Assembly (NCBI GenBank): GCA_965372715.1
Contig: CBDVDH010000007.1
Span: 18,580-82,579, forward strand
Source: an uncultured bacterium
GTDB lineage: Bacteria; B130-G9
Reading direction: 5' to 3'
DNA: 64,000 nucleotides
Shown here: piece by piece, positions 13,610-59,506 of the stretch
How positions within the stretch are numbered: the first letter of the stretch is position 1
Layout of the letters: each line of letters opens with the position of its first letter
The notes under the pieces: model-generated
Told to the model about the DNA's origin: nothing
The model's database searches: none
Seen by the model: only the letters and a program-made list of their open reading frames with translations
Position numbers and translations under genes: made by a program

Positions 13610-13774
13610 AGCGGCTCCTTTCTTCATGATGAACCTTCACTTCGTCTGTTGCGTCCATACAATTAGGATATGATAGGGTGCCAGTTTCGTAAAGAGAAGT
13701 AAGGATGAAAGCGGAAGGATGCTCTTGAAGGATGAAAGATTTCGGATTGCGCAATGAGGAGGGATGAAGACGAC

Positions 13775-14860
13775 ATGACGAATCTGCCAGAGCGACGGGG
13801 TGATTCTCAGATTCTCCTCTACCAGATAGAGGACGGCCGGACGCGGATAGAAGTCCGCTTGGAACGCGAGACCGTTTGGCTGACGCAGCAACTGATGGCG
13901 GACCTCTTCCAGACAACAAAGCAGAATATCAGCCTCCATATTCAGAGCATTTTCCGGGAGGGGGAGCTGTCGCCGGAGGCAACTGTCAAGAAATACTTGA
14001 CAGTTCAACGCGAAGGCAACCGAGACGTGAGGCGTTATCTGGAATACTTCAATCTCGACGTAATCATATCCGTCGGCTACCGTGTGAAGTCCCACGTGGC
14101 CACCCGGTTCCGCATCTGGGCGACCCAGCGATTGCGGGAATACATTGTTAAAGGCTTCGCCTTGGATGACGAACGGCTGAAACAGGCCGGAGGTGGCAGT
14201 TACTTTGACGAATTGCTGGCCCGGATTCGCGACATCCGCTCTTCCGAGAAGGTCTTCTGGCGGAAGGCCCTGGATATATATGCGACGAGCATTGACTACA
14301 ACCCCAATACCGACGTGTCGCGCCAGTTCTTCAAGGTCGTTCAGAATAAGATCCACTGGGCGGCCCACGGGCACACGGCCGCCGAGATCATCAGTGCGAG
14401 GGCAGATGCATCCCGACCGAATATGGGGCTGACCTCATGGAGGGGAAGCAAGCCGACACGGGAGGACATCGACATCGCCAAGAACTACTTGAGCCTCGAG
14501 GAACTGGACGTCTTGAACCGAATTGTCTCCATATATCTGGACTTCGCGGAACTCCAAGCCCTGAACCGAAACCCCATGTATATGAGCGACTGGATCGCCA
14601 AACTAGATGACTTCATGCGCATCAGCGAGCGGGACATCCTGACGCACGCCGGGACTGTAAGCCACGATGAGGCGCTGGGAAAGGCACGAAAGGAGTATGA
14701 GACATATCGGAAGAGGATGCTGGAGGGACCTTCCGCGGTGGAGCGGCATTTTGTTGAGGTCGTCAATGAAGTGAAGCAGTTGGAGAAGAGCAAGCCACGA
14801 AAGGCCAAGAAACGCGCCAAACGTGGAAGGATGAAGGATGAATGGCGCTCTGATGTATGA
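13775..14860 (+). CDS. RhuM family virulence/Fic-like protein
   Basis: ILLYQIEDGRTRIEVRLERETVWLTQQLMADLFQ...YFNLDVIISVGYRVKSHVATRFRIWATQRLREYIVKGF, a RhuM hallmark. Start at MTNLPE is likely; the track ORF begins at 13754. Confidence 0.85.
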   Translation: MTNLPERRGDSQILLYQIEDGRTRIEVRLERETVWLTQQLMADLFQTTKQNISLHIQSIFREGELSPEATVKKYLTVQREGNRDVRRYLEYFNLDVIISVGYRVKSHVATRFRIWATQRLREYIVKGFALDDERLKQAGGGSYFDELLARIRDIRSSEKVFWRKALDIYATSIDYNPNTDVSRQFFKVVQNKIHWAAHGHTAAEIISARADASRPNMGLTSWRGSKPTREDIDIAKNYLSLEELDVLNRIVSIYLDFAELQALNRNPMYMSDWIAKLDDFMRISERDILTHAGTVSHDEALGKARKEYETYRKRMLEGPSAVERHFVEVVNEVKQLEKSKPRKAKKRAKRGRMKDEWRSDV

Positions 14861-19300: not shown

Positions 19301-20531
19301 ACTCGCGCTTGAGCGTTTCGTCATCGAGCGTCAGGACAATCGTGAGGAGCTGCTCGGCGGCGTAGTATTCCTGGATCAATTGGTGTCGGAACTCGATGGC
19401 GTTGTCTGAAGCACGCTGGATGAGGTGATGGTTGATGAGATCCCTGAGCAGTTCGGCAGCGTCGATCTTCCCGGCCAAACCGCTGTCGGCAATGAACCGG
19501 CCCAGGATGTCCTTTCCCTGCTTCCCGTCAACAACAAGCCGAAGCTCCGTGGGTGAATCCGCTTGCAACATCTTGAAGGCCAGTTGTTGCAGCGCCTGCT
19601 CCCACGAGTCCCTGGATTCCTCCTTGACGGGCGCACCGTGTTTGACCGTCTTCTGGTATTGCTCGGCGAATGTCCGGAAGACCAGCCCAAGGTTCTCAGG
19701 CATCTCCTCAGTTCCCTTAAAGAGCGCGCAGAGCATCCAAAGGAAGAGCGGCGTTCGGGCCAATTCCTTGACACGGTCCCGCAGCTTCCTAACAAAGGCC
19801 TCTGACCGTCCCGGCAAGTATGCCTCGACGAACTGCTTGAGCTGCGGCTCTGTTAGCGGGAGCATGTCCAGCCGGCGCTCGATCCCAAGATCGAAGGCGC
19901 CGCCGAGCTCGCGCGTTGTGAAGGCCATCGGTGTCTTGGGGTGCAGGCTGCGGAAAGAGCTAACGGCCCTGCGAGAGTCCTCGGACGGAAGCTCATTCAG
20001 CCCGTCGAAGAGCAGGAGAAACCGCCCTTCGTCGAGCAGCCTATTCGCCTCGTCTTCTATAAGCTCCAACCCATGTTGCCCCAGAGAGCGCCTGATCAGA
20101 TTCATCGGCGTCTCCTGGTAGTGTTTGAGCTCCAATAGGACGGGGATTCTCTTCTTGGGATCGCGGCTGGCGGCTTCGGCCTCTTCCAAGAATAGCCGGG
20201 CCAGGGAGGTTGTCTTTCCGGACCCGGGCCGGCCGACGAGCAGGACGTGTTCGTTGGCGTATTTGCGCAGCCCCTCGACCACGCCCAACTTCTCGACACT
20301 CTCGCGTCTCGGCTCGCCAAACTTCCTTTCTTCCTTGCGTTGGCCGCGTTCTGGTCGCTGAGCTCTTTCCTTGAAAGCCTCCGCCATCAGGTCGAAGAGG
20401 TCGCGGCACCGGGTCTCTTCGCGCGACGCGTCAATCGGCGCGAACCGGTCCCACCACTTCGCGTGTTCCGCACAAACCGACTTCAGGTAGTCTTGCCACA
20501 GCTCACGGCTGACCATCGTGGATTCCTTCAT
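16308..20531 (-). CDS. NACHT-family P-loop NTPase / HEAT-repeat array (~18x31 aa) / C-terminal calcineurin-like metallophosphoesterase fusion protein (1407 aa)
   Basis: N-terminal Walker [13 protein letters not shown] with Walker [10 protein letters not shown] in a STAND/NACHT context. About 18 repeats of [23 protein letters not shown], a PBS-lyase HEAT signature. C-terminal [23 protein letters not shown] match PF00149 metallophosphoesterase motifs. Confidence 0.85.
17350..19070. repeat. tandem array of ~18 near-identical 93-bp units (HEAT repeats of the NACHT protein)
   Basis: Recurrent strings such as gcttgaagcagcggcgtcactgcggcttcagttccgat. The array also generates long spurious antisense ORFs on the + strand (17835-19049). 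Confidence 0.85.
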
Positions 20532-20890: not shown

Positions 20891-21127
20891 TCAGCTGGAT
20901 GATGCGGCCAATCCTGTCCTTCCGATGGCGATGTCCTCGATCACAACCTTCCGGAAAACATCCGGATCGCCAAATCGCTTTTTCGCATCAAGAATCTCTA
21001 TCCCGGCAATGCGCCCGTCTTCTGCATAGTCAACGGCGAATCCTTCCGCAAGATGCTCTGTTGTTACGGTCGTTTCTATGAAGCGGATGTATAGCGCATC
21101 CAGATCGGCATCATATGTGATTCTCAT
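20891..21127 (-). CDS. DUF2283 family protein
   Basis: 78 aa: MRITYDADLDALYIRF...DGRIAGIEILDA (YDxExDxLYI motif). 4-nt overlap with the upstream PIN gene. Confidence 0.7.
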   Translation of the reverse strand: MRITYDADLDALYIRFIETTVTTEHLAEGFAVDYAEDGRIAGIEILDAKKRFGDPDVFRKVVIEDIAIGRTGLAASSS

Positions 21128-21540
21128 TTCCTCGAACTTCTCCGCAGCACATCGGCCGGCGTTTTCCGGCCCAGGTCTGTTCGGTCGAAGTCGCTGTCGA
21201 AGCTCAGAATGGTGAGGCCGTGCTTTTCTGCTACAACGTATTGATAGGCATCGTCGAAATCCAATTCAAACCTGCAAGCCGCGTCGGTCATGTCTTGCAT
21301 GTCTTCGGCAGACAGAGCGATCACTATCGTTCCGGCGTCAAGAATCATATCGGATGTGAACTGCTGGAAGAGCTCGTGCTTCTTCAGGCGAAAGAGAATA
21401 ACTCCTATCGAATGAAATGAGAAAGCTGAGATGAAGAGGTCATGCCTGTCCGCAGCTGCAAGGATGGACCGAGCCTCATCGGCCCGCGCCCGATCCAGAA
21501 TCACTTCAAGGAAAATGTTGGCATCGACTAATAGCCTCAT
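21124..21540 (-). CDS. PIN-domain ribonuclease toxin (VapC-like)
   Basis: RLLVDANIFLE N-terminal PIN acidic motif and further conserved Asp residues. ATGA start/stop overlap with the upstream antitoxin. Confidence 0.8.
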   Translation of the reverse strand: MRLLVDANIFLEVILDRARADEARSILAAADRHDLFISAFSFHSIGVILFRLKKHELFQQFTSDMILDAGTIVIALSAEDMQDMTDAACRFELDFDDAYQYVVAEKHGLTILSFDSDFDRTDLGRKTPADVLRRSSRK

Positions 21541-21761
21541 TCTTGCTCGATTCGCCAATCGGAGGCTTTGTGCTGCAATTCAACTGAGGTGTATTTGTCC
21601 CTCAAGTCCTTCAAGCCTCCCGCCCAGTCGAATCGGGGCTTGCGCCGCGGTCTGTTTGTGTGTTTCTCAAGCAGGAAGCCAGCGAAATCCCTTACTTCGA
21701 TCTGAAGGTTAGGAGGCAGCTCCTTGACAAGATCTTCCAGTGACTTTGCCATGTTACCCAT
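21537..21761 (-). CDS. DUF2281-type antitoxin
   Basis: 74 aa with LPPNLQIEVRDFAGFLLEK. Translationally coupled to the PIN gene. Confidence 0.6.
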   Translation of the reverse strand: MGNMAKSLEDLVKELPPNLQIEVRDFAGFLLEKHTNRPRRKPRFDWAGGLKDLRDKYTSVELQHKASDWRIEQE

Positions 21762-29116: not shown

Positions 29117-29827
29117 ATGAATTTTGAGGTCTATTGCGACGAGAGTCATCCAGACGTCTTCTGGTCTCAGTCAAATGCTCGAGCGAGGTTCCTTCTGATC
29201 GGGGGTCTCTGGCTTGCGTCGGACCTGCGGCAGCAAGTTAAGGCAGACATCAACGCCCTCAAGCAACGCAATGGATTTGATTTGGAACACGAAATCAAAT
29301 GGCACAAAGTTCACCGAGGCAGACAGGATTTCTACACCCGCCTCATCGAGCTTTTCGTCGACTATGGTGATCGCTTGCGATTCCGGTGCATCGCGGTTGA
29401 GGGTGACCGGGTCGACCTGGTGCGGTGCCATGAAAGCGACAGCGAGCTCGGATTCTATAAGTTCTACTATGAAATGCTTAACGGTTGGATTGAGGATTCC
29501 AATGAATATCGGATCTTCTGTGATGAGAAGACGAACAGAGCCGGAGACAGGCTCAATACGCTGAGGACGGTCCTTCAGAACTCCAATAGCCTGTCGAGAA
29601 TCATATCGGTTCAGGCTTTGCCGTCCAGGCAGGTTCTCCTTATCCAGCTGACTGATTTCCTGCTTGGCATGGTATCGTCCAGAATGAATAGCTCAGTTCC
29701 CCGCGGTGGCTTCAAGGACACATTGATCAGGCGCCTGGAACAACACCTTGGCCGAGGCCGCATGGCCCCAACAGCGAAGTCCGAGGCGAAGTTCAATATC
29801 TTCCGAATTCACCTGCAGGACGAATAG
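29117..29827 (+). CDS. DUF3800 domain protein
   Basis: MNFEVYCDESHPD is the N-terminal DUF3800 signature (hhhDESG-like). 236 aa. Strong RBS ggaggataggag. Confidence 0.7.
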   Translation: MNFEVYCDESHPDVFWSQSNARARFLLIGGLWLASDLRQQVKADINALKQRNGFDLEHEIKWHKVHRGRQDFYTRLIELFVDYGDRLRFRCIAVEGDRVDLVRCHESDSELGFYKFYYEMLNGWIEDSNEYRIFCDEKTNRAGDRLNTLRTVLQNSNSLSRIISVQALPSRQVLLIQLTDFLLGMVSSRMNSSVPRGGFKDTLIRRLEQHLGRGRMAPTAKSEAKFNIFRIHLQDE

Positions 29828-38574: not shown

Positions 38575-39630
38575 TTGATGCTGCAGGAGGGACAGTTCTA
38601 CAACGAAGATTGCATCGAGGGCTGCAAGAGACGCATCCCCGGTGATTCGGTTGATCTGATAATCACGGACCCGCCCTACGGGATCGACGGCGACCGGCTT
38701 CACAAGCACTACAATCGCAAGGAGGGTTTCGTGCTCGACGGCTACGTCGAGGTCCCAGCCGATGAATATGCTGATTTCAGCATGGCCTGGATACAACAGG
38801 CGGCGCGCATTCTGAGGCCCGGCGGCTCAATCTACATCGTGTCGGGCTATACGAATCTCATCCACATCCTGAATGCCCTGCGTGCCACGTGCCTGAAAGA
38901 GGTCAACCACATCATCTGGAAATACAACTTCGGCGTTTTCACCAAACGGAAATACATCTCATCGCACTATCACATTCTCTACTACGTGAAACCCGGCGGC
39001 AGAGTGACCTTCAATACACACAGCCGATACGGCGCTGACGAACGAGACGACGACCATGGCTCTTTGAATTATCGGGACAGAGAGGACGTCTGGATAATCA
39101 ACAGGGAATACAAGCCCGGCCAGCGTAAGAACAAGAACGAGCTCCCTAAGCAGCTGCTGATTAAGCTCATACAATACAGCAGCAACGAGGGGGACCTCGT
39201 CTGCGACCTATTCCTGGGCAGCTTCTCTACCGCGAAGGTCGCCATCGGCCTCAACAGACGTGCGATGGGCTTCGAGAAGAGCAAGGTCGCGTTTGACTAT
39301 CAGATTGACCAGGTGTCCAAGGTCGAACCGGGCTCCCTACTTCCGAGTTTGAGGAGCCCTCAGCAGAGCAAGCTTCCCAATCAAGGCAGGCCCTGGACCG
39401 AGGCGGAGAAGCAGCGGCTTTGGCAGCGCTACCAAAGCCTGATCCGCATGCACCGCGTAAAGAAGAAGGTCATCAAGCTTCTAACCGAGGAATTTGGTCG
39501 GGGGAGGTTCGCCCTATCAAAGGTCATCCATGAGATGCATGGGGCCGCAACTGAGGAGGAGCAGCATTCTACGGTTGAGCGATCTGGCGAACTCGTTTAC
39601 CGCTCAGGCAGACATTCCCAGATTCCTTGA
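38575..39630 (+). CDS. beta-class DNA methyltransferase (N6-adenine/N4-cytosine, CcrM/HinfI-like), apparently solitary
   Basis: NEDCIEGCKRIPGDSVDLIITDPPYGI (motif IV) at the N-terminus, LVCDLFLGSFSTAKVA (motif I FxGxG) later, and a ~100-aa C-terminal extension. Confidence 0.85.
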   Translation: MMLQEGQFYNEDCIEGCKRRIPGDSVDLIITDPPYGIDGDRLHKHYNRKEGFVLDGYVEVPADEYADFSMAWIQQAARILRPGGSIYIVSGYTNLIHILNALRATCLKEVNHIIWKYNFGVFTKRKYISSHYHILYYVKPGGRVTFNTHSRYGADERDDDHGSLNYRDREDVWIINREYKPGQRKNKNELPKQLLIKLIQYSSNEGDLVCDLFLGSFSTAKVAIGLNRRAMGFEKSKVAFDYQIDQVSKVEPGSLLPSLRSPQQSKLPNQGRPWTEAEKQRLWQRYQSLIRMHRVKKKVIKLLTEEFGRGRFALSKVIHEMHGAATEEEQHSTVERSGELVYRSGRHSQIP

Positions 39631-39635
39631 TTTTG

Positions 39636-39713
39636 AATCTGTGTAATCTGCGGATGAGTTCTCCTAGCGCATCTGAGAAGCTAGGTCCACAGATTACGCA
39701 GATTACACAGATT
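39636..39713. terminator. bidirectional terminator-like long hairpin between the methyltransferase and GxxExxY genes
   Basis: 17-bp stem AATCTGTGTAATCTGCG / CGCAGATTACACAGATT (39636-39652 with 39697-39713) enclosing an inner hairpin CCTAGC...GCTAGG. Confidence 0.5.
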
Positions 39714-40083
39714 AGGTGAGGATGAAACGGCGGTATTGGAGCGATTTCTGGCCGAAGTTGAGAATCAGGCCGACGGCCAGACCTGAGGCTTTCAAATAAT
39801 TGAGTATCTGCGCCTCGTGCACACCTGTGATCATATCGACGGCCTTCAGCTCAACTATGACTGAGTCAAAACAGACGAAATCAGCCTTGTATTGCGTGTT
39901 GAGCTGCTTCCCCTTATACAACACCGGCAGCCCAACCTCCCGCTTATTCGGTATCCTCCTCTCCGTGAGTTCCGATGCCAACGCCTCTTGATACACTGTC
40001 TCCAGGAATCCGCAACCCAGCTCGCGGTGCACCTCCATCGCGGCGCCAATAATCGCATAGGTGTCAGGATCCTCCTTGTTCAT
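39712..40083 (-). CDS. GxxExxY family protein
   Basis: IIGAAMEVHRELGCGFLETVYQEAL is the GxxExxY signature. 123 aa. Confidence 0.8.
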   Translation of the reverse strand: MNKEDPDTYAIIGAAMEVHRELGCGFLETVYQEALASELTERRIPNKREVGLPVLYKGKQLNTQYKADFVCFDSVIVELKAVDMITGVHEAQILNYLKASGLAVGLILNFGQKSLQYRRFILT

Positions 40084-41432: not shown

Positions 41433-42806
41433 ATGATCAGGACGGTCAGCAGATTGATTGTGATCGGGGCATCGGCCGCGGGGCTTTCAGCCGCAAGTCG
41501 GGCGAGGCGCCTGGACCCCGGCCTCGAGATAGTCGTGCTGGAGAAGACGGAGCACGTCTCTGTAGGCTTGTGTCAGCTGCCTTATCTAGTTGCGGGATAC
41601 ATTAAGGACAGACGAGATGTTGTGGCCATCCCGCTCGACGACCTGCGTGAGAAGCGGAACATCGATGTGCGGATCAAGCACGAGGCGCTGGGGATCAACC
41701 CGACTGCGAAGACCGTAGCGTTCTCGGACCTAGAATCGGACAAAGAGCACGAGATGGAATACGACCGGCTGGTCTTGGCGACGGGCGCACTTCCAATCAG
41801 GCCGCCTATCTCTGGCCTCGAGGCGCCGAACGTGTTTGTCCTCCGTTCTCTAGAAGATGCGCTTGTGATCATGAATTACATCAAAGAACGAGGTCCGAAG
41901 AACGCGGTAATCGTTGGCGGCGGCTACATCGGGCTTGAGATGGCCGAGGCGCTCGCGCGGAACGGTCTTTCGGTAGCGATGGTTGAGATGCTGCCGAACG
42001 TTCTCGGGACGATGGACGATGAGCTCACGTCGCCAGTCGAGGCGCACCTTAGGAAACAGGGCGTGAATCTGCTTCTATCATCGCGGCTTGAGAGCGTGAA
42101 GTTGGGTATCGAGGGCTACGCTAACGCGGTTGCGGCCGGAGGTAAGGAGCATCCTGCGGACCTGGTTCTGATGTCACTTGGGGTTCGCCCGAACACTGCG
42201 ATTGCGAAGGAGGCCAGACTGACCATCGGCGAGACGAGCGCAATCGCGACAGATTGGAAGCAGAAGACGTCCGATGAGAGCATCTTCGCTGCGGGAGACT
42301 GCTCAGAGTCGCAGGACATCGTGACGGGCAGGAAGGTGTGGGTACCGCTGGGCTCAACGGCCAACAAGCAGGGCCGCGTCGCTGGGGGCAATGCGGCCGG
42401 CGGATACTCGACTTTCCGAGGGATCACCTCGACGGCCATCTCGAAGACGTTTGACATCGAGATCGGTAGAACAGGCCTGACGGAGAAAGAGGCGAAGAGG
42501 CTCGGTCTGGATTACGAAGCCGCTGTAATCACATCACGGTCGCGTTCCGGCAATTATCCAGGCTCTAAGCAGATGACCGTGAAACTGGTCTTTGAACGCG
42601 TAGGGGGCAAGCTGCTCGGCGGTCAGGTCGTCGGCGAAGATGGCGTCCTCGCCCGAATCAACGTTCTGGCCTGCGCGCTGTTCAAGCGCCTCACCGTCGA
42701 GGAGGCCGCCCGCCTCGACCTCGCCTATGCGCCGCCATTCGCTCCGGCGTGGGACCCCGTGCTCGTCGCGTGTAATCAGGCGGCCAAGAAGGTGAAGGTG
42801 ACATGA
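41433..42806 (+). CDS. FAD-dependent pyridine nucleotide-disulfide oxidoreductase (CoA-disulfide reductase/NADH oxidase family)
   Basis: LIVIGASAAGLSAA (FAD GxGxxG), a second Rossmann IVGGGYIGLEMAE and the redox-active Cys region. Start at MIRTV, which has a GGAGGG RBS; the track ORF begins at 41289. Confidence 0.8.
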   Translation: MIRTVSRLIVIGASAAGLSAASRARRLDPGLEIVVLEKTEHVSVGLCQLPYLVAGYIKDRRDVVAIPLDDLREKRNIDVRIKHEALGINPTAKTVAFSDLESDKEHEMEYDRLVLATGALPIRPPISGLEAPNVFVLRSLEDALVIMNYIKERGPKNAVIVGGGYIGLEMAEALARNGLSVAMVEMLPNVLGTMDDELTSPVEAHLRKQGVNLLLSSRLESVKLGIEGYANAVAAGGKEHPADLVLMSLGVRPNTAIAKEARLTIGETSAIATDWKQKTSDESIFAAGDCSESQDIVTGRKVWVPLGSTANKQGRVAGGNAAGGYSTFRGITSTAISKTFDIEIGRTGLTEKEAKRLGLDYEAAVITSRSRSGNYPGSKQMTVKLVFERVGGKLLGGQVVGEDGVLARINVLACALFKRLTVEEAARLDLAYAPPFAPAWDPVLVACNQAAKKVKVT

Positions 42807-42825
42807 TTAACAGAATCGCATTGGG

Positions 42826-43449
42826 GTGAGCGTCAAGATGAAGGGACTATTAGAGCTGTCTGCCCTCTTTCTAGGGATAATCAACGGGCTGATCCTTCTG
42901 CGACATTATCTTCGAGATAGGCCCAAATTGAGGGTGCGAGCCCTGCATCCTGATCAATACCAGTGGTGGTTCAGATTGCCTCCAGGCGAGTATAAAGGCC
43001 AGCCGACTAGAAAGTACGGCTTCTTGGCTTATGTCCAGATCACTAATCGAGGGCTTCGAGACGTGAGCTTCGAGTCTTGGGGAATTAAGATCAAGGCAAA
43101 AGGTGGCGAGAAGCTGGAACTGCATCCGATAAGCATCCCTCAGCCGAGCGGCATTCTCGGGGATTCCGAAAACGTCAAGCTCTATCCGGTTCTAGGTCAG
43201 AGGACTCTCTTGTTCGAGGGCAGCACTATGGTCAAATCCGGTGATAGCGCGTCAGGGATGGCTTACTACATGGCCGAGGTTTACGGCGACGAGGGCTGGG
43301 GCCCCGCGATCACGGGGGACGGGAAGGTGCAGGCGGAGCTTGATATAGACGACGTGTTCGACAAAAAAGCCAGCTGCAAGTTCTGGTTCTCAGAGATCAG
43401 CCTCGAGCGTGCCGAGAAGATGGTGCCAGGGATCGCGAAGATCGGGTGA
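42826..43449 (+). CDS. hypothetical N-terminally membrane-anchored protein
   Basis: 207 aa with one N-terminal TM (LLELSALFLGIINGLILL). Confidence 0.4.
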   Translation: MSVKMKGLLELSALFLGIINGLILLRHYLRDRPKLRVRALHPDQYQWWFRLPPGEYKGQPTRKYGFLAYVQITNRGLRDVSFESWGIKIKAKGGEKLELHPISIPQPSGILGDSENVKLYPVLGQRTLLFEGSTMVKSGDSASGMAYYMAEVYGDEGWGPAITGDGKVQAELDIDDVFDKKASCKFWFSEISLERAEKMVPGIAKIG

Positions 43450-43502
43450 CGCCGGATGATGCGCGTTCGTAGCCGATGAAGCCAGATTTAAGCAACATGG
43501 TG

Positions 43503-44420
43503 TCAAGTCCTCTCGTTCCGGCCGAAACATTCACGTATCCACTTGCTGATAGGACCATTCAAATCCTCCCCGCTGATCCGTCTGCCAGTGTATCTTTGTA
43601 GGAGCTCGTCGATTTTGAGAAGACAGTGTGAACTCATGTTGAGAGCGCAGGCTCTTTCGATGGCCCGTGCACTCTTCTGGTCAAACTCCAGTTGGCTCAT
43701 TTGCCCCTTTCTTCTGAAGCGCTCTAGCCTTTCTATGTCGAACCTGGGGTCTTCACGCAGCGTAAGGTCTTCAATCTCGACATTTGGGATACTAGGGAGC
43801 TCGTCAATGTTCAGTATCTTCAGCAGCATATTCTTCCCGTTGAGCCTTAATTCGTGAGAGATATCGCGGTCTGAGTAGTACTCGACCATCTGGGTGATAA
43901 ACAGCCATCCGTCCTTTGTTTCGTTCCGGAAGTCCCAGTTGTTTCTGATAGTTAGCAGCTGCTCGTAGGCCTTTCGGGCCAGTTCGTCGATATCCCCGAA
44001 GAAATAGCACCATCTTCCGGTATCATAATCGCTCACCTTCTCCACCAGTTGTTGCATGCTTGGATGCCTTTCTGGCACCTCTTTGATGAAGAATCTGCTT
44101 GTCTTAGCGGAATCCATGGCCCTGTCGAATTCCTCCTCTGTTGGAGATTTGCCTGATTCTGTCCCCTCATAGCCATACTTCTCGCCGAACAGAAAAATGC
44201 AGATGTCGGCTTCGTCAACCATTCTCAGGCAGGCGTGCCCGGGGCTTTCCTCTTCTCCCACATGAGGGGGATCTTCGGAATGCACGGGAGTCATTTCCAA
44301 ATCACAAATGAGATCCACTAGCATCTGGCGCTCCTCCTTGAATTCCGAGACAACCGAGGAGATGAAGACCTTCAGCGGTCGTTCGCCGCATTCTGGCAGC
44401 GGATGAGTCTCTTCAAACAT
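43503..44420 (-). CDS. DUF4062 (TIR-like) domain protein
   Basis: LKVFISSVVSEFKEERQMLVDLI is the DUF4062 N-terminal signature. 305 aa. Confidence 0.65.
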   Translation of the reverse strand: MFEETHPLPECGERPLKVFISSVVSEFKEERQMLVDLICDLEMTPVHSEDPPHVGEEESPGHACLRMVDEADICIFLFGEKYGYEGTESGKSPTEEEFDRAMDSAKTSRFFIKEVPERHPSMQQLVEKVSDYDTGRWCYFFGDIDELARKAYEQLLTIRNNWDFRNETKDGWLFITQMVEYYSDRDISHELRLNGKNMLLKILNIDELPSIPNVEIEDLTLREDPRFDIERLERFRRKGQMSQLEFDQKSARAIERACALNMSSHCLLKIDELLQRYTGRRISGEDLNGPISKWIRECFGRNERT

Positions 44421-44470
44421 CGTAATCCAGAGTGTTCGTCCTCAGTCCCCTCATCCCCCACGTCCCTCAA

Positions 44471-44504
44471 CATTGAGACTATTATGCCGACTGCGACGGC
44501 GAAC
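44471..44504. repeat. 34-bp perfect direct repeat, copy A (remnant of the flippase-like gene's 3' end)
   Basis: attatgccgactgcgacggcgaaccagagcgtgc is identical to 45166-45199. About 45 bp of diverged homology continues leftward in both copies. Confidence 0.8.
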
Positions 44505-44533
44505 CAGAGCGTGCGGGATACCACGCAACCGCA

Positions 44534-45064
44534 CTACCCCTCCTCATCCCAATCGATGTATTGTGGCGGGCTCGCCCCGACGCGCTTCGTCACGATTGGG
44601 TAGTTCTTCTTTGGGACCTCGTCCTCGATCGCGACGACCTTGATCTTGTGCCACCAGTCGTCGCCGAAGTCGAACCAATAGAAGAATGACTGGCGAACTC
44701 TGAGGCCCAAGGAGCGGATTGTGACGCTTGTGTCACCGATGTCTGGATCATCGACCCCGTCGTCCGCAAAAAGAGCGTCCAAGGGGGACGAGCATCTGTA
44801 GCACATGTTGTCAGGAGCGTGGGGGCGCTTTCCAAACTGAAACTCATACATGTGTTCGTCGTCCCGGTCGAACGCCCTAAAGATGGCCAGGTGCAGATTG
44901 TCCAAGCTCTGATCGCCTCGCATCTGAATCGTGCGAGAGACCTTGGGATTCTGTTTGGCAAACTCTTCTGTCTCGGGCCCACTTATGAGGAGGACTTCCA
45001 GCGTGTAAAGCTGATTGGATTTGGATTGTCCCTTTTTAGCTTTTGTCTGCGAATTCTGTTTCAT
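44534..45064 (-). CDS. pRiA4b ORF-3-like (PRiA4_ORF3) family protein
   Basis: FFYWFDFGDDWWHKIKV is the family's YxYDFGDxWxH motif. Confidence 0.7.
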   Translation of the reverse strand: MKQNSQTKAKKGQSKSNQLYTLEVLLISGPETEEFAKQNPKVSRTIQMRGDQSLDNLHLAIFRAFDRDDEHMYEFQFGKRPHAPDNMCYRCSSPLDALFADDGVDDPDIGDTSVTIRSLGLRVRQSFFYWFDFGDDWWHKIKVVAIEDEVPKKNYPIVTKRVGASPPQYIDWDEEG

Positions 45065-45113
45065 AGTAGCTCCTCTGTTTCATATTAAGTGTCAAAGGTA
45101 GCTTAAAACGAAG

Positions 45114-46121
45114 TCAATCAACGTTCCCATCCTCCTCGCCGATGTCCTTCAGCAGCATCGAGGCGATTATGCCGACTGCGACGGCGAACCAGAGCGTGCA
45201 GAGGCGGATGACGATCGTCGCGGCCCCGGCGGCGCTCTTGTCCGTGCATTGGGTGAGCTTCAGCAGGAGGCCGGTCAGGCTGACCTCGGTGAGGCCTATC
45301 CCGCCGGGCATCATGGTCATAGCGCCCACAAGCGTCGAGAAAGCGTAGATGAACACTGCGTCCCCGAAGGACGCGAAACGGGTGATGTCCAGCGCCTCGA
45401 GCACAATGTAGAATGCGACGCACTCGCAGAACCAGGAGACGACACTCAGCCCGACGGCCGGAACGAGTCGCCGAAGCCTTATCAGCTGATACATCGACTC
45501 GTACGCCTCGGCTGCTTTGTCCGTGAACCTCTTCAGAAGCGGAATCATGCCTACGAGAGTGAGAATCGGCTGGGCGAGGCGCCTCGAGCCGACGATCACG
45601 ATGACCGCGACGGTTATCGCGGCGCCAATCAGGAGCACCTTGCCGCCGGTTGCGAATGTCGCCGCGCCCCAGGCGGAGAGGATGAGGAATGCAATGAAGT
45701 CGGTGAAGCGTTCTGCGACGATTATGGGGGCCGTCCTGGCGATAGCGGAGCCATCGACCATCTTGAGAAAGAGGGACTTTATGACCTCGCCAAACCTACC
45801 GGGGCTTATCGTCATCGTCAGCCCGGCAAGGAATATCTTGAAACTCTCCTTTTTGCTGATCGCCACGCCCAAGAGGCGCAGGTAGTAATCCCACTTGAAG
45901 AACCTAAGGATGTAGTTGACGAAGGCCAGTCCGAGGACGCAGGGCAGATACCAGAGGTTGAAGCTGGCGAGCGATTGGGCGAAGTCGTCGAAGCCAGAAT
46001 AGACCGAGATGATGAGGAAAACACCCGCTCCAAGAATGACTGCAATTACGAGCTTCTTGCGCAGGCGATGAAGTATGCTCAAAGGCCCATCCTTTTGAGT
46101 ATCATCTTGTTCTCGGTCCAC
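45114..46121 (-). CDS. flippase-like / lysylphosphatidylglycerol-synthase-TM (UPF0104) family membrane protein
   Basis: 335 aa, 8 TM helices, N-terminal LVIAVILGAGVFLI...FKWDYYLR. Contains copy B of the 34-bp repeat (45166-45199) near its 3' end. Confidence 0.7.
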   Translation of the reverse strand: MDREQDDTQKDGPLSILHRLRKKLVIAVILGAGVFLIISVYSGFDDFAQSLASFNLWYLPCVLGLAFVNYILRFFKWDYYLRLLGVAISKKESFKIFLAGLTMTISPGRFGEVIKSLFLKMVDGSAIARTAPIIVAERFTDFIAFLILSAWGAATFATGGKVLLIGAAITVAVIVIVGSRRLAQPILTLVGMIPLLKRFTDKAAEAYESMYQLIRLRRLVPAVGLSVVSWFCECVAFYIVLEALDITRFASFGDAVFIYAFSTLVGAMTMMPGGIGLTEVSLTGLLLKLTQCTDKSAAGAATIVIRLCTLWFAVAVGIIASMLLKDIGEEDGNVD

Positions 46122-46987
46122 TTGTCCCTAACTTTGACGAAGATGTGCAAAAACACCTTGGACCCGAGCATGGCCTCCATCTCCTGCCGCGCCAGCGTCC
46201 CGATTTGCTTCAACATTTGGCCGTTCTTGCCAATTACTATAATCTTCTGGCTCGATCGTTCAACGTAGATCGTGGCGTCTATTCTGATTAGCGTCTGCTC
46301 GCCCTTTTGCTCTTCCTCGACGGATTCGACGACGACGCCTGTGGAATACGGGAGCTCCTGGCGTGTCAACATCATCGCCTTCTCTCTGATGATCTCCGCG
46401 AGGATGAATTCCTCCGACAGGTCGGTGACAGTTTCTGGGGGATAATACATCGGGCCTTCGGGCAGCAGGCCGATGAGTGTGTCGAGAAGCGAATCAACGT
46501 TCGTGTTCCTAAGCGCCGAGATGTGAAAGGTCTCCTTAAAATCTAGAAGCGAGCAATAGCGCTCGGTCATATCCCTGATGTCTATCTCGGGATGCTGAGG
46601 CAGAAGGTCGCATTTGTTGATGGCCAGCAGAACAGGGCACTGCACTCTGCCGAGGCTTTTGAGTATGAATATGTCCTGGGGATGAGCCTTTCTCTTCACC
46701 TCTGTCAGGAAGACTATTGCGTCCATGTCCGACATGGCGTTCAGCGCCGCTCTAACCATCATCTTGTTCATGAGCTTTGGCGGCTTGTGTATGCCGGGTG
46801 TATCCAAGAGGATAACCTGTGCGTCGGGGAGCGTCTTCACGCCTAGAATGCGATTGCGCGTCGTCTGCGGCTTGTCGGTGATGATCGCTATCTTCTTGCC
46901 GACGATGAGATTGATGAGCGTCGATTTGCCGACGTTTGGCCTGCCGATGATCGAGACGTAGCCTGACCTGAAGGCCCGCTCAGCCAT
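46079..46987 (-). CDS. era: GTPase Era
   Basis: GYVSIIGRPNVGKSTLINL, DTPG, NKCD and a C-terminal KH domain. Start at MAERAF; the track ORF extends to 47200. Confidence 0.9.
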   Translation of the reverse strand: MAERAFRSGYVSIIGRPNVGKSTLINLIVGKKIAIITDKPQTTRNRILGVKTLPDAQVILLDTPGIHKPPKLMNKMMVRAALNAMSDMDAIVFLTEVKRKAHPQDIFILKSLGRVQCPVLLAINKCDLLPQHPEIDIRDMTERYCSLLDFKETFHISALRNTNVDSLLDTLIGLLPEGPMYYPPETVTDLSEEFILAEIIREKAMMLTRQELPYSTGVVVESVEEEQKGEQTLIRIDATIYVERSSQKIIVIGKNGQMLKQIGTLARQEMEAMLGSKVFLHIFVKVRDKWTENKMILKRMGL

Positions 46988-46991
46988 TCCT

Positions 46992-48350
46992 CTAGTCTTG
47001 CTCTTCGCCTTCGGGTTCGCCAATGGGCGCAATCTCGCCGGAGCCGGAAGCGAGCTCGTCCGCCAATTGAAGCCCCTGCTCAATCGAATTGTCCATGTTG
47101 TTATACCAGAACAGCCCAGTCCGGCCGGCCAGGTGGACGTTCGCGAAGCTCTTGACATCCTCTTTGAACCGCTCCTTCTCCTGTCTGTAGCCGAGCTCAT
47201 AGAGCGGGTATGTGTTATCGACTCTCTCGGTGTGAATGTCTAGGATGTTACCGCGATTGCACATGCCGACCTTCTCGAGGTCATCGATGATGTTCTCGCG
47301 GTTGGACTCGGCGTATTCCACATCGGCCGGGCCGAGGCTCGTTATCTCAACACAGACACCGCTCTTGCCCTCTGGGACCATGTGCGGGCTGAAGTTCTGG
47401 GGGAATGAGGCCCTCGTCAGCGTCAGGTCCTTGCTCGGGAAGTATATCCACTGATCGTTGAGGCCGACCTTGTGGTCGATCTCGATATTGAAGGCCACTA
47501 GCGAGAGATAATGAAGGTTTGGCTTTCGTATTCCGAGCTTCTCCGCAAGAAGAGGAGCCGGCGCCGTCCAGATCAGAACGTCCACGTCGTCCTTCTGGCC
47601 ATCATACGCAATCGATGATACTCGGTTCTTAGCCGTGGTCAGCTCGACATCTTGCACGTCGCACACGACACTGCCCCCGAGCGACTTGATGCTGGCCTCG
47701 AGCTTCTTGCTGAAAACATCGACGCCGTGCTTGGGATACACGAACTCGGTCGTAACGGGACTGGGCAGCAGCGTTACCTTGAGCGTGTCCCACAGGGTGT
47801 TCATGCTGGCCCGCTTGTCGATGATGGCCCTGTCGATGCTCGCTGAAGCCCACGTCGCGTGCAGCTTCGCCGGGTCCGTCCAGCAGTACTTCACCGTGTA
47901 GTCGTGGAAGAATATCTCGTAAAGCGTTGGGCCATACTTGCTCTTGATGTAGTCGTCGAAGCGCTCCGTCGTGAACTCCGGCCGCCTAAACAGGTCGAAA
48001 AAACACCTGATAAGCGCAGATTTCGGCAGCTTGAGCAGCGATTTCGGTCTGAGCGGCCATTGATGGTATCTGTCAAAAAGATACACGCTGGAGTGCCGCT
48101 CGATCGTTATGCTCTCGTCTCCCAAAATGTCCTTGATGAAGCTGCTAACATGTGGGTTGTCGGTATGAAACCGATGTGGACCGATATCGAAGGAAAAATC
48201 GCCATACCTGAACGTTTTGGCCAGGCCACCGACCTCGCTGAGTTTCTCCAGCACGACAACGTCGAACCCGCGCCGCGCCAGCTCGTAGCCAACCGTCAAG
48301 CCGCTTATTCCAGCGCCAATTACGTGCGCTCGTCTCTTCTTTTCGCTCAT
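46992..48350 (-). CDS. FAD/NAD(P)-binding amine-oxidase/CrtI-like oxidoreductase
   Basis: RAHVIGAGISGLTVGYELARRGFDVVVLEKLSEVGG, a dinucleotide-binding fold. AGAGG RBS at the MSEKK start; the track ORF begins at 48374. Confidence 0.75.
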   Translation of the reverse strand: MSEKKRRAHVIGAGISGLTVGYELARRGFDVVVLEKLSEVGGLAKTFRYGDFSFDIGPHRFHTDNPHVSSFIKDILGDESITIERHSSVYLFDRYHQWPLRPKSLLKLPKSALIRCFFDLFRRPEFTTERFDDYIKSKYGPTLYEIFFHDYTVKYCWTDPAKLHATWASASIDRAIIDKRASMNTLWDTLKVTLLPSPVTTEFVYPKHGVDVFSKKLEASIKSLGGSVVCDVQDVELTTAKNRVSSIAYDGQKDDVDVLIWTAPAPLLAEKLGIRKPNLHYLSLVAFNIEIDHKVGLNDQWIYFPSKDLTLTRASFPQNFSPHMVPEGKSGVCVEITSLGPADVEYAESNRENIIDDLEKVGMCNRGNILDIHTERVDNTYPLYELGYRQEKERFKEDVKSFANVHLAGRTGLFWYNNMDNSIEQGLQLADELASGSGEIAPIGEPEGEEQD

Positions 48351-55475: not shown

Positions 55476-57626
55476 GTGGCTGAACGCAGAAAACCAGGCA
55501 AACGTCGCAGCTTCGTGCTGACGAGGCGCATGACGATCTACGATCTGTTTCGCGAACGCGTCTTCAAGGAGGCGCTCTCTGTTCTGATGATCGCTGTCGC
55601 GGCGATCTCGCTCGTCAGCCTCTGGGGCGGGGATTCGGAGACCAATCCGGTCGGCCTTGTCGGCCGCTTTCTATCCGGCGCGTTCGCTCTTGTTTTCGGG
55701 GAAGTCCCATCCTATCCGCTCCTCGTGATTCTGTTTGCATTCGCTTTTGCCACGCTAATCAGGAGGAAACCGAGGCTTCTGCCGCTGAAGATCATCGCCA
55801 CTTTCGTGTTCACAGTAGCGCTCGGGACGATCTACGCGCTCATCAAGGGGCACGCGTCGATGCAGGAGGCGTTTTTCGCACGCGAGCTCGCCAGGTTCCT
55901 GATTGACTATTTCAGTGCGTTTGGGGCCATCGTCCTGATCATAGCTCTTTTGCTCGCCTCGGCAATGCTCGTGGCCGGGGTTGGCATCGGTCAGGTCTTT
56001 GGCTTCCTTCTCCGCATCTTCGGCAGAACGGCTAAGCAACGGGCGGACGTGCTGGCTGAGCCAGCCTTGGCGACTTCAAAGGCGAAGAGAAGGCGAGAGG
56101 CCAAGAGGCCAGGCGAAACGCCCGCCTCGGGCCCTGCTGGCATAGGGTGCCCCGCTATCGCGAGCGAGGGTTACCAGGCCCCGGCGGTGGACCTTCTGGA
56201 CCCGACCGGGCGCATGGACAGCGCTGAGCGGCAGAGCAATCTGATCAGAAAGGGCGAACTGATCGTCGAGAAGCTGGCCGACCACAACATCGAGGGCAAG
56301 ATAGCGGGCATCCTCACGGGGCCGATCATCACGAGGTTCGAGTTCCGGCCAGCGCGGGGAGTGAAGCTCAGCAGGATAGTCTCACTCGCCGACGACCTTG
56401 CGCTGGCGATGAAGGCGAAATTCGTGCCTCGTATAGCGCCCATCCCGGGCAGGTCGGTGGTCGGGATCGAGATCGCCAATGAGAACCGTCGCATAATAAG
56501 GTTCCGCGAGGTTCTGTCGTCAGGCCAATTCCATGATAATCCAACGAAGCTGAAGCTCGCCGTCGGAACTGATATCGCGGGCCAGCCGCACGTCATCTCC
56601 CTCGAGAGCATCACGCATATCCTCATCGCTGGGGCAACCGGGACGGGCAAGTCAGTCTGCATCAACTCGATGCTTTGCAGTCTGCTCTACTCGACCAGCC
56701 CGGAGGAGCTTGAACTCATCCTCATCGACCCCAAGATGCTGGAGCTGTCGCCATACAATGGCATCCCGCACCTGCGCGAGCCGGTTATCAGCGACGTGCA
56801 GAGCGCGGAACTCGCGTTCAGATGGGCAGTCTCCGAGATGGACCATAGATACCAACTCCTGGCCGAACGGAGGGTCCGCCACCTAAACGAATACAACGAG
56901 CGCGTTCTCGAGGAACGGAAGGCTCGCGCGAGCGAGCTCACCGGACTTGGGCCCCAGGAGATGCCGCCCGAGCTCAAGACCATCCCCAACCTCGTCATAG
57001 TCGTCGATGAGCTTGCCGACCTCATACTCTCGGCGAGGCAGGCAATCGAGGTCCCGATAATCAAGCTCGCCGCCAAGGCCCGCGCCGCTGGCATCTATCT
57101 CGTGCTCGCCACACAGCGGCCATCTGTTGATGTGGTAACTGGGCTTATCAAGACAAACTTCCCATCGAGGCTCGCGTTTAGGGTCGCCCAGAAGGTCGAT
57201 TCGAGGACGATACTCGATCAAAACGGCGCCGAGAAACTGCTCGGCAGGGGCGATATGCTTTTTCTGACGCCTGGCGTCGCAGGTCTCACTCGTCTGCACG
57301 GCGCCTTCATTTCTGAGCGAGAGATCGAAAGGATCGTCAGGCATCTGAAAAAGCAGCCGGCGCCGGTTCGCGAGAGCTCGATCTTCGACGAGGTCGAGCA
57401 GCAGGAGACGCTCGATATCGAGGGCGCGGACGATCCGCATTACAGAAACGCCGTCGAGATAGTCGTCCGCTCCAAATACGCCTCGATCTCGCTGCTTCAG
57501 CGCAAGCTCAAGATCGGCCACAGTCGTGCGGCCCGCTACATCGACATGATGGAGCAGCAGGGCGTAGTCGGCCCCTTTAGAGGCAGCAAGCCCCGCGAAG
57601 TCCTCGTGGACGACGTCAGCTTCTAG
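55476..57626 (+). CDS. ftsK: DNA translocase FtsK
   Basis: N-terminal TM helices, motor domain HILIAGATGTGKSVCINSML, and a C-terminal gamma domain. GTG start. Confidence 0.9.
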   Translation: MAERRKPGKRRSFVLTRRMTIYDLFRERVFKEALSVLMIAVAAISLVSLWGGDSETNPVGLVGRFLSGAFALVFGEVPSYPLLVILFAFAFATLIRRKPRLLPLKIIATFVFTVALGTIYALIKGHASMQEAFFARELARFLIDYFSAFGAIVLIIALLLASAMLVAGVGIGQVFGFLLRIFGRTAKQRADVLAEPALATSKAKRRREAKRPGETPASGPAGIGCPAIASEGYQAPAVDLLDPTGRMDSAERQSNLIRKGELIVEKLADHNIEGKIAGILTGPIITRFEFRPARGVKLSRIVSLADDLALAMKAKFVPRIAPIPGRSVVGIEIANENRRIIRFREVLSSGQFHDNPTKLKLAVGTDIAGQPHVISLESITHILIAGATGTGKSVCINSMLCSLLYSTSPEELELILIDPKMLELSPYNGIPHLREPVISDVQSAELAFRWAVSEMDHRYQLLAERRVRHLNEYNERVLEERKARASELTGLGPQEMPPELKTIPNLVIVVDELADLILSARQAIEVPIIKLAAKARAAGIYLVLATQRPSVDVVTGLIKTNFPSRLAFRVAQKVDSRTILDQNGAEKLLGRGDMLFLTPGVAGLTRLHGAFISEREIERIVRHLKKQPAPVRESSIFDEVEQQETLDIEGADDPHYRNAVEIVVRSKYASISLLQRKLKIGHSRAARYIDMMEQQGVVGPFRGSKPREVLVDDVSF

Positions 57627-58458
57627 CGGCGAGCCCAGTCCGTTTCAGCAGGCACTCCCGCAAGGCCACGAGGTCTGAGGGACGCCGGTCATTGGAGACC
57701 TGCCATTCGGCCACGGCCTCGGCCAAGTCGATGTCGGCTTCCCCAGGCGCAAGACTGCCCTTCGAGCCGCGTATGTAAGACCGCGCCTCTCGAAAGAGCG
57801 GCTTGCCGGGGAAGGTCTGGGGCCAGTCGCCGGCATTGATGGTCTGCTTGATCTCGTTGTGATACTTGGAGAGGTTGCTAGCGATGCTATTCTCTGCCAG
57901 GTTTGCTCTCGGGAGACCGCAGACATGCCTATGCCAGTCCTTGGTTTCCAATATGTAGTCCAGAGCACTTGTATGGTCTGTTATCTCGTCTTGAGTAGGG
58001 TCGGGGGGAAAGCTTCGTGTCAGTTCGATACGAAGGTCTGAAAGAGATCTCTTGCACACAACCCACCACGTCAGCGCTGTGGCCCTCTTCTTTACCCGAC
58101 GTTCTATCTCGGACGCTCTCCTGGTCAACCCCTCTGCGGCACAATTCGCAAGCGCGTCCCAGTCAAGCAGGTAGTTCTCGACCTCGTACCGCGGAATAGT
58201 GAAGACGTAAGCGTGGGGATTCGTCCAATCCGGGAAGTTGGTCTCGCCGAAATCTTTGTCTCGAACTCCAAAGACATTCGTGCGTTGGTCCGGGCCTGAA
58301 CGAGCACCAGTTGTCAGCGCGCTCACGCTTTCCCGGCCCCCGGCCACGGCGAAGCCGATTCTCGGGTCTTTCTGCCAAAGTGCGCGGAGGTATTCCTTTG
58401 TCAGCTCGTCCTCCACCCAGACGACGACAGCTCGCCTCTTGTATAGCGACCTAAGCAT
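57616..58458 (-). CDS. DUF4435-like (TOPRIM-like) protein, AriB-like partner of the upstream ATPase
   Basis: 280 aa. N-terminal VVVWVEDELTKEYLRAL resembles the VEGxxD motif of OLD/TOPRIM-like DUF4435 proteins. 8-nt overlap with the ATPase gene. Confidence 0.45.
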   Translation of the reverse strand: MLRSLYKRRAVVVWVEDELTKEYLRALWQKDPRIGFAVAGGRESVSALTTGARSGPDQRTNVFGVRDKDFGETNFPDWTNPHAYVFTIPRYEVENYLLDWDALANCAAEGLTRRASEIERRVKKRATALTWWVVCKRSLSDLRIELTRSFPPDPTQDEITDHTSALDYILETKDWHRHVCGLPRANLAENSIASNLSKYHNEIKQTINAGDWPQTFPGKPLFREARSYIRGSKGSLAPGEADIDLAEAVAEWQVSNDRRPSDLVALRECLLKRTGLAARS

Positions 58459-59506
58459 TGTGCTCCGGTCGGTCCCGGATCACAGGCTTGTCGTTTGGAC
58501 CGAGACGCGGGTCGCCCTCGTGAAGCAGCCAAAACCGCTCGTAGCTCATTACCGAATCGAGGATCTCTGCCGAATGCGTCGCCACGATGATCTGCGTGTC
58601 AGGCAGAAGCACTCTCAGTGCTCTCATTATGGCGCAGTGCCACTCTTCGTGCAGGTGTAGCTCCGGCTCGTCGATCAGGACGATTCCGCCCCGGTAGTCG
58701 TTCATCGTGAACCAGCCGGCCATCGTCAGAACCTCGATCTCGCCGGAACTGAGGTCGTTCACCGGGATTTCTGCGCCGTCTTTTCTCCGAAGGTAAAGGT
58801 TGTAGCCTCCATCAGGGTCATCCATATCGACTGACCTGACGAAAAACTCCGCCTCGTCCCCGGGATAGAATATCTTCCAGGCCTTCTCGAGAGGATCAAT
58901 GATGGCTCGCACCTTGGGATTCGATCCAGGATCAAGCCTGTTCATGGTTGAGTATAGCCACAGATTCCTGCACTTCTTTTGGAGAGCTACGAGCCGGTCT
59001 GCTTCCTTACGGTCTTCGTCCTTATCTCCCTTCTCATCCGCGACCGGCAGCGATGCAACAAGCTTGGGCGTCCGCCAAGATGTGAAATACGAAATCGGGA
59101 TTGCGACGCGACGAAGAAGACCGGGGACAGGCCAATCCATCGCGGCAATCTCGAGTCTCATCGTCCGGTGATCTTCGTCCCACACTTCCCCAATGTGCCA
59201 TTTCATCTGATCGGATTGCCACTCCGTCTGAACAGACTCATCTTTAATCAGAGCATCGGCTTCGATCTCGAAGTTTTCAGCGCCGGCTTTCACGTTGCTC
59301 AATGGATTCTCAGCTGAAGCAGCCATTAACTGCTTGCGGCCGCAAGCGATCAGGATCGCTTCCAGGACGGAGGTCTTGCCGCAGCCGTTGGGGCCGGCGA
59401 GGACTACGAGGTCGAGCGGATTGCCGTCGGGATCGGTGAAGTCGAGGTCGAGCTCGCCGATGCACCTGAAGTTGCGAATCTTGAGGCCTTTGATCTTGAT
59501 TCCCAT
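58451..59506 (-). CDS. ABC/SMC-like ATPase (AAA_15/AAA_21 type), AriA-like
   Basis: IKGLKIRNFRCIGELDLDFT...VLAGPNGCGKTSVLEAI (Walker A), VLIDEPELHLHEEW (Walker B / D-loop) and a terminal ATHS. Confidence 0.75.
   Translation of the reverse strand: MGIKIKGLKIRNFRCIGELDLDFTDPDGNPLDLVVLAGPNGCGKTSVLEAILIACGRKQLMAASAENPLSNVKAGAENFEIEADALIKDESVQTEWQSDQMKWHIGEVWDEDHRTMRLEIAAMDWPVPGLLRRVAIPISYFTSWRTPKLVASLPVADEKGDKDEDRKEADRLVALQKKCRNLWLYSTMNRLDPGSNPKVRAIIDPLEKAWKIFYPGDEAEFFVRSVDMDDPDGGYNLYLRRKDGAEIPVNDLSSGEIEVLTMAGWFTMNDYRGGIVLIDEPELHLHEEWHCAIMRALRVLLPDTQIIVATHSAEILDSVMSYERFWLLHEGDPRLGPNDKPVIRDRPEHNA

Follow-up and report, generated by a model that had tools for sequence, protein, structure and literature searches.

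In this work, we describe a perfect 34-bp direct repeat in a stretch of 64,000 nucleotides from an uncultured bacterium (contig CBDVDH010000007.1; the whole stretch is here called the window), whose two copies lie on either side of a gene of the PRiA4_ORF3 family, one of them within the 3' end of a flippase-like gene. A first-pass annotation had taken the repeat for the footprint of the integration of the PRiA4_ORF3 gene (PRiA4 in the following). Comparison with related loci leads us to a different reading: on balance, the repeat is probably a recombination scar at a gene-turnover hotspot, rather than an integration footprint. The segment between the copies is genuinely polymorphic, being present in some of the related loci and missing from others, where an exact empty site is found. 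PRiA4 itself is an old neighbour of the flippase-like gene, acquired once in the ancestor of a clade and co-inherited since, and the repeat arose long after it.

The window contains the 34-mer, ATTATGCCGACTGCGACGGCGAACCAGAGCGTGC, two times and no more, in direct orientation (same strand), as first annotated, and the sequence is not a dispersed genomic repeat. Chance matches were absent from shuffled sequence, even when up to 3 mismatches were allowed. The copy within the flippase-like gene (copy B, 45166-45199) had been placed correctly; the other one (copy A) had been given as 44471-44504, ten bases off its actual position, 44481-44514, and the spacing between the two is 685 nt instead of 695 bp. 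The repeat widens to 47 nt at 91% identity (44468-44514 and 45153-45199), and degenerate homology extends to about 71 nt. Similarity between the copies stops abruptly on the high-coordinate side and decays gradually on the other: they differ at none of the first 34 columns and at 14 of the next 37 (Fisher p = 3e-5). Three further elements of the first-pass annotation hold: the PF07929 gene lies between the copies, copy B falls within the part of the flippase-like gene (45114-46082, minus strand) that encodes the C-terminus, and the flank of copy A encodes a diverged version of the same C-terminal peptide (...IIVSMLRDVGDEGTED... vs the gene's ...IIASMLLKDIGEEDGNVD*).

The 47 open reading frames (ORFs) of the window were searched for domains. 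The parts of the locus are listed below in the order of transcription of the flippase-like gene; L001 and L007 are two related loci, without and with PRiA4, respectively.

46079-47200, minus strand: Era gene
45114-46082, minus strand: flippase-like gene (LPG_synthase_TM, TIGR00374), 322 aa from ATG; conserved left flank of a variable slot
45166-45199, minus strand: copy B, perfect 34-mer in the flippase coding region (encodes ...TLWFAVAVGII)
45129-45199, minus strand: gene-proximal copy of the ~71-nt duplicated flippase 3' end; its identity to L001 6884-6955 is close to the genome-wide value
45114-45130, minus strand: last flippase codons and stop (DGNVD*), seen only alongside PRiA4
45065-45113, minus strand: 49-nt spacer with a GGAG ribosome-binding site, homologous to the L007 spacer
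44534-45064, minus strand: PRiA4_ORF3-family gene, 176 aa
44515-44533, minus strand: 19-nt junction from the PRiA4 stop to the second copy; the boundary between CCC and GCA is common to L007
44481-44514, minus strand: copy A, perfect 34-mer, non-coding; probable crossover or gene-conversion tract
44421-44480, minus strand: tail A, a displaced, diverged flippase tail plus the former intergenic spacer
43503-44420, minus strand: DUF4062 gene, 305 aa; deeply diverged allele relative to L001
42826-43449, plus strand: 207-aa ORF with no family match; diverged allele relative to L001
41433-42806, plus strand: Pyr_redox, pyridine-nucleotide disulphide oxidoreductase; conserved right flank of the slot, its last ~230 nt within the diverged block
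42577-44514, no strand: putative exchanged allele block, left end at copy A, right end inside the 3' end of Pyr_redox

Filled and empty forms of the locus

An empty counterpart of the window is provided by L001, a contig of a metagenome-assembled genome (GCA_964480475.1), whose flippase-like protein is 95% identical to that of the window. Its gene order is Era, flippase, DUF4062, a 205-aa ORF, Pyr_redox and an aminotransferase, with no PRiA4, and only 22 nt separate the flippase stop from the DUF4062 start. The same junction and the same gene order from Era to Pyr_redox, with a single copy of the gene end and no PRiA4, are found in L003, a Logan contig from an independent sample. In BLAST comparisons, 72 nt of L001 (6884-6955) match both window copies, the gene-attached one within an alignment of 91.4% identity and the distal one within an alignment of 79.8%; the window therefore corresponds to L001 plus 685 nt. 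An apparent extension of this homology, between the spacer of the gene-attached tail and the L001 intergenic region with the DUF4062 start (about 65% over 37 nt, with a gap), was judged indistinguishable from alignment noise.

A second filled locus, L007, features the flippase gene (tail ...EEDGNVD*), a homologous 49-nt spacer and a PRiA4 gene at 82% amino acid identity, followed by another copy of the flippase end. On both sides it is flanked by sequence matching that of an empty genome, L005, where the downstream gene is a different one, on the opposite strand, homologous to the C-terminal part of an AAA_15/21 ATPase found in the related locus L010. In both the window and L007 the extra DNA begins just after ...GGCGAGGAGG, and the second copy begins at GCA(C/A). 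DGNVD*, the last five flippase codons and stop, is found only in these two PRiA4-filled loci. Nucleotide identity in the 3' part of the flippase gene is 95% for the window and L001, and 97% for L007 and L005: filled and empty states are thus interleaved among closest relatives. The single-copy empty site expected in relatives by the first-pass annotation does exist, in L001 and L003 for the window and in L005 for L007. A scan of species-representative genomes with the flippase protein added little to this set, yielding two close relatives, one already included, and 53 others at 34-44% identity, which are uninformative.

The first-pass annotation had further proposed that the inserted segment supplies a replacement 3' end to the gene. 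This stands for the last codons, given the restriction of DGNVD* to loci with PRiA4; it does not for the rest of the tail, since the gene-attached copy resembles the orthologues up to ...GEE and the diverged tail is the displaced one.

Age of the PRiA4_ORF3 gene relative to the repeat

In two more distant loci, too, the flippase orthologue is directly followed by PRiA4: L008 (4-nt overlap) and L006 (31-nt gap). In a tree of 60 family members, the PRiA4 genes next to a flippase gene (window, L007, L008, L006) are monophyletic in 100 of 100 bootstraps, with the topology (((window, L007), L008), L006), consistent with the ranking of flippase identities. Synonymous divergence (dS) of PRiA4 keeps pace with that of the neighbouring flippase gene at all depths:

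window-L007: PRiA4 dS 0.50, flippase dS 0.35
window-L008: PRiA4 dS 1.13, flippase dS 1.09
window-L006: PRiA4 dS 2.09, flippase dS 1.80

The left junction is shared as well: the motif ACGT(T/G)(G/A)AT(T)GAC, present in the window as ACGTTGATTGAC within 45114-45130, recurs in L008 and L006 and, with one mismatch, in L007. Clade, matching dS and common left-junction motif indicate that the junction between flippase gene and PRiA4 was inherited from an ancestor predating dS of about 2.

No second copy of the flippase end accompanies this old junction. In L008, L006 and all empty loci, local alignment scores against the flippase end lie at the shuffle mean; neither PRiA4 pseudogene remnants nor leftover second copies were found at the empty sites, or in L006 and L008. 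The perfect identity of the 34-mer is not explained by conservation either, because orthologous coding copies differ from it at 2-7 positions. As a non-coding repeat as old as PRiA4 could not have stayed identical at 34 of 34 positions, the repeat is not the footprint of PRiA4 arrival, contrary to what had been first proposed.

In L008 (1526-1529), the tail of the flippase ORF is longer (...NNNVNDKGLK*) and shares 4 nt (ATGA) with the start of PRiA4, which suggests that the two genes may be translationally coupled in that lineage.

A scan of metagenomes with a PRiA4 alignment collected 80 loci, at about 50-60% identity, 72 of which, all distant, could be evaluated for bracketing repeats. No such repeats were detected in 69 of the 72; the three exceptions, L108, L109 and the marginal L079, feature different structures, and in none of them is the end of an upstream host gene duplicated. 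A flippase, DUF4062 or 207-aa neighbour was found among distant PRiA4 loci only in L064, which is the same contig as L008. The arrangement of flippase gene, PRiA4 and second copy is therefore a property of this locus, not of the PRiA4 family. Monophyly, congruent topology, matching dS and the lack of flippase-linked copies in the 72 distant loci give no sign of an element history decoupled from that of the host.

Two of the exceptions deserve a short description. In L108, a 54-nt direct repeat (4088-4141 and 5497-5550, 46 nt of it perfect) surrounds a module of PRiA4 and a 233-aa ORF, beside a PIN gene; the repeated sequence is that of the 3' terminus (...IPATSA*) of the second of these ORFs and may be the remnant of a tandem copy. 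In L109, an unrelated metagenome contig, PRiA4 is flanked by a 90-nt AT-rich direct repeat (259-348 and 1887-1976) at 84% identity.

Probable block exchange between the flippase-like gene and Pyr_redox

Divergence between the window and L001 is unevenly distributed along the locus. It is low in Era (dS 0.13), flippase (0.16) and Pyr_redox (0.24), and much higher in DUF4062 (dS 0.86, dN, its nonsynonymous counterpart, 0.27) and in the small ORF (207 aa, 205 aa in L001; dS 1.12). A profile of identity to L001, calculated in sliding 60-nt segments after removal of the PRiA4 segment, locates the limits of the diverged region. Within the flippase gene identity is 92-100%, save for one segment at 83% and one at 88%; it falls exactly at copy A to 82-88%, goes down to 48-63% in DUF4062, and does not recover to at least 92% (one segment at 80%) until about 42577, within the 3' end of Pyr_redox. 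Over the whole block, 42577-44514, identity is patchy, ranging from 40 to 97%, and lies below 90% in all but two segments.

Tail A belongs to this block. It is located directly upstream of the DUF4062 ATG, as in L001, which is the ancestral position, and is colinear with the L001 tail, stop codon and 22-nt spacer, with a 3-nt and a 1-nt deletion that leave the stop codon out of frame. Its identity to L001, about 79%, equals that of the adjoining 5' region of DUF4062. Being contiguous with this region, and diverged to the same degree, tail A is thus the left end of an allele block of about 1.9 kb. Such a block, ending in sequences of both conserved flanking genes, carries what we read as the signature of replacement by double homologous recombination.

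The DUF4062 allele is itself patchy: identity to L001 is 48-63% in the N-terminal and central part (43926-44339) and 87-97% nearer the 3' end (43566-43805), as would be seen if the allele were either a mosaic or under diversifying selection.

The region downstream of the flippase gene varies among relatives, with at least six alternative contents: DUF4062 and the small ORF in the window and L001; an AAA_15/AAA_21 ATPase, AriA/GajA-like according to PADLOC, in L010, with a homologue of its C-terminal part in L005 and L007; Peptidase_C25 in L004/L145 and L006; HATPase_c_4 in L150-152; URO-D in L146 and L148; a methyltransferase in L008. Where contigs extend far enough (window, L001, L010, L150), the slot is closed by Pyr_redox. 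Filled and empty versions were found in three contexts, those of DUF4062, the AAA_15/21 ATPase and Peptidase_C25, and the presence of PRiA4 is independent of the slot content that follows.

Chromosomal turnover hotspots located between core genes and diversified by double homologous recombination are known (Oliveira et al. 2017, PMC5635113), as are core defence hotspots (PMC10250203). The slot described here resembles them in that two conserved flanking genes enclose contents varying among close relatives, no recognisable mobile-element genes are present, the apparent recombination tract ends within the flanking genes, and some of the alternative contents are defence-type ATPases. It differs from them by the short second copy of the end of one flanking gene, which lies inside the slot. 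It also differs from defence hotspots in that the pair formed by DUF4062 and the 207-aa ORF has no PADLOC match, so that a defence role for it is only putative.

The second copy is a mosaic in both genomes. In L007, 12 differences fall within its left 28 columns and 2 within the right 46 (p = 7e-5), and the right part is 97.9% identical to the native tail of L001. The polarity is opposite in the two cases, the identical stretch being the left 34 nt in the window and the right 47 nt in L007; the two loci share no identical core at which strand exchange could have taken place. These sharp mosaics denote a recombination breakpoint inside the second copy in each genome, at a different position, and breakpoints that differ in this way would be more consistent with homologous exchange than with strand exchange at a fixed core. 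In addition, the two copies of the window both carry the ATAAT and ATG states, neither of which is found in L001, L005, L007 and L004; ATAAT also occurs in L008, L006 and L144. States common to both copies in this way suggest conversion between them.

We propose that slot contents are replaced by homologous recombination with DNA of relatives, crossovers occurring in the two conserved flanking genes. Copy A and tail A would represent the left end of one exchanged block, made up of tail A, DUF4062, the 207-aa ORF and the last ~230 nt of Pyr_redox. An earlier second copy of the flippase end, common to the window and L007, was by then in place past PRiA4, so that the incoming block could have recombined there instead of in the real gene, and PRiA4 would have been kept. 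The perfect 34 nt would be the crossover itself or a gene-conversion tract. Recombination in the real gene, or between the copies, would on the other hand remove PRiA4 and produce empty sites such as those of L001 and L005. The second copy thus appears to act as an alternative crossover site protecting PRiA4 from replacement, and the case suggests, without proving it, that a stray end of a flanking gene may shelter an accessory gene in this way. As to the first-pass annotation, its indel, displaced tail and empty site are real, and it is the polarity and mechanism derived from them that are probably wrong.

Several points weigh against this explanation. If PRiA4 was gained only once, the lineages sampled must have lost it independently at least 6 times. 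A recombination scar does not in itself account for the origin of the first second copy, which in the common ancestor of the window and L007 could have arisen by one illegitimate join, by tandem duplication and subsequent partial loss, or by the re-insertion of a looped-out circle. Gene conversion between two repeats of only 34-47 nt has to be postulated. Both boundaries of the segment are the same in the window and in L007, in spite of their different downstream contexts, as a site-specific mechanism would give too. Finally, all compared sequences are metagenome assemblies, several of them short contigs: L007 is only 1.7 kb long, and the flippase dS between it and the window is based on 118 codons.

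Alternative mechanisms and neighbouring genes

The repeats might instead be the attL and attR sites of a site-specific element devoid of integrase, a 685-nt remnant or satellite that targets the flippase 3' end and carries a mimic of it, and that is integrated and excised by an integrase with its gene elsewhere in the genome. Cis-mobilizable elements (CIMEs) are decayed remnants of integrative and conjugative (ICE) or integrative and mobilizable (IME) elements, which by definition lost their integration genes and kept attL and attR at the 3' end of a target gene (PMC5704250). Like them, the unit is bracketed by direct repeats, one of which includes the end of a protein gene, carries no integrase, is matched by exact empty sites in two backgrounds with identical boundaries, and supplies the last codons and stop of the interrupted ORF, the original tail being displaced; the displaced tail of L007, moreover, has stayed intact and resembles that of L005, as it would after a recent insertion. 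Unlike CIMEs, it has no parent element or cognate tyrosine or serine recombinase within the unit or the 64-kb window, and its cargo is monophyletic and co-diverges with the host gene. The repeats are absent from the older filled lineages L008 and L006, and the stretches of identity, left in one genome and right in the other, define no common core. The gene-attached tail is the orthologue-like one, and the unit was found at no other site, the 72 distant PRiA4 loci having neither a flippase neighbour nor a duplicated host-gene end. We consider an element of this kind unlikely, and less likely than a recombination scar.

More generally, the tRNA-island type of integration evoked by the first-pass annotation finds no support in the genes of the region. 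As that annotation had noted, the segment contains no integrase; nor was an integrase, transposase or tRNA gene found in the 64-kb window. Absence of a transposase and of terminal inverted repeats at the segment ends led us to discard a transposon or insertion sequence too, the duplication being about 71 nt long and not a short target-site duplication. pRiA4_Orf3-like passenger ORFs have been described in Mutator-like transposons of the ISAzba1 group (Guerillot et al. 2014, PMC3942029); the gene found here belongs to the same family, PF07929, which thus has a record of travel on mobile DNA, but in contrast to those elements it has none of the transposon features just mentioned and lies next to a duplicated host-gene end.

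Movement driven by homology alone is likewise doubtful. The 685-nt segment with PRiA4 could leave by RecA-type recombination between the repeats and re-enter empty chromosomes as a circle or within transforming DNA, its flippase-like stretch recombining with the host gene, within the clade and with no enzyme of its own. This would account for the missing integrase, the restriction to a single clade and the interleaving of filled and empty states among closest relatives, as well as for a duplicated length of about 71 nt in both the window and L007 with a different crossover position. The repeats, however, 71 nt long with 34-47 nt identical, are short for efficient homologous recombination; equality of dS with the flippase gene argues for little transfer between lineages; circles are hypothetical; and the coincidence of the start of the diverged block with copy A would be left unexplained. 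A variant combining features of the preceding explanations, to which we also attach a low probability, would make of PRiA4 and its flippase 3'-end mimic a minimal enzyme-less mobile unit, moved by host recombination or by a borrowed integrase and restoring the frame with its own stop, the second copy protecting the unit during exchanges at the hotspot. If the unit existed as a circle or in tandem, its junction would read ...GGTATCCC followed by the 34-mer and CGCCTCGATGCTG...

An assembly artefact, i.e. a chimera of co-occurring strains joined at the 34-mer and in Pyr_redox, is very improbable: the source is indeed a metagenome assembly, and a diverged block bounded on both sides by conserved sequence is what a strain bubble would give, but L007, assembled independently from another sample, has the same flippase-PRiA4-second copy architecture, real reads must contain the join between the PRiA4 end and the 34-mer, and the frameshifted tail A would be an odd functional tail if derived from an empty strain. 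We also counted against it that common assemblers end with k-mers longer than a 34-nt repeat.

If the repeat is a recombination scar, as we favour, the locus offers a worked example of how a repeat resembling an integration footprint can be a by-product of homologous exchange at a hotspot. The empty site of a relative is not sufficient, alone, to prove insertion: the age of the enclosed gene, from its tree and from its dS compared with that of a neighbour, and the divergence profile of the flanks are needed as well.

The flippase-like protein, whose orthologues are 70-95% identical, matches PF03706 (E = 4e-41) and TIGR00374 (E = 1.8e-22). The PRiA4_ORF3 protein belongs to PF07929 (E = 5.5e-22, 78.8 bits vs a cut-off of 26.6) and matches PDB 2i1s (E = 1.2e-5). 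Exact look-up of these two proteins returned no record, PADLOC gave no match for PRiA4, and a scan of the region for promoters and terminators gave nothing above shuffle expectation. Within the spacer (45065-45095), ATGAAACAGAG lies 22 nt upstream of the real PRiA4 start ATGAAACAGAAT: it is a small duplication of the start region, not seen in L007.

Apart from PRiA4, several small accessory insertions are found in the region covered by the window. RhuM-family, PIN-domain and DUF3800 genes (13754-14860, 21124-21558 and 29117-29827) occur singly among the housekeeping genes IF-2, NusA, RimP, LigA and EngA. A 1407-aa protein encoded at 16308-20531 (minus strand) combines a NACHT domain, many HEAT repeats and a calcineurin-like phosphoesterase (PADLOC HEAT-ARM_XIII, 2e-54). 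At 38575-40083, a type II N6/N4 DNA methyltransferase (PADLOC MTase_II, 3e-142) adjoins a small protein with a PDDEXK_3 nuclease fold, encoded on the opposite strand, and the pair may be restriction-modification-like. Lastly, at 57616-59506 (minus strand) the gene for an AAA_15/AAA_21 ATPase (351 aa) overlaps by 8 nt that for a DUF4435 protein (280 aa): the two match AriA/AriAB and AriB in PADLOC, and are predicted to constitute a PARIS-like defence pair.

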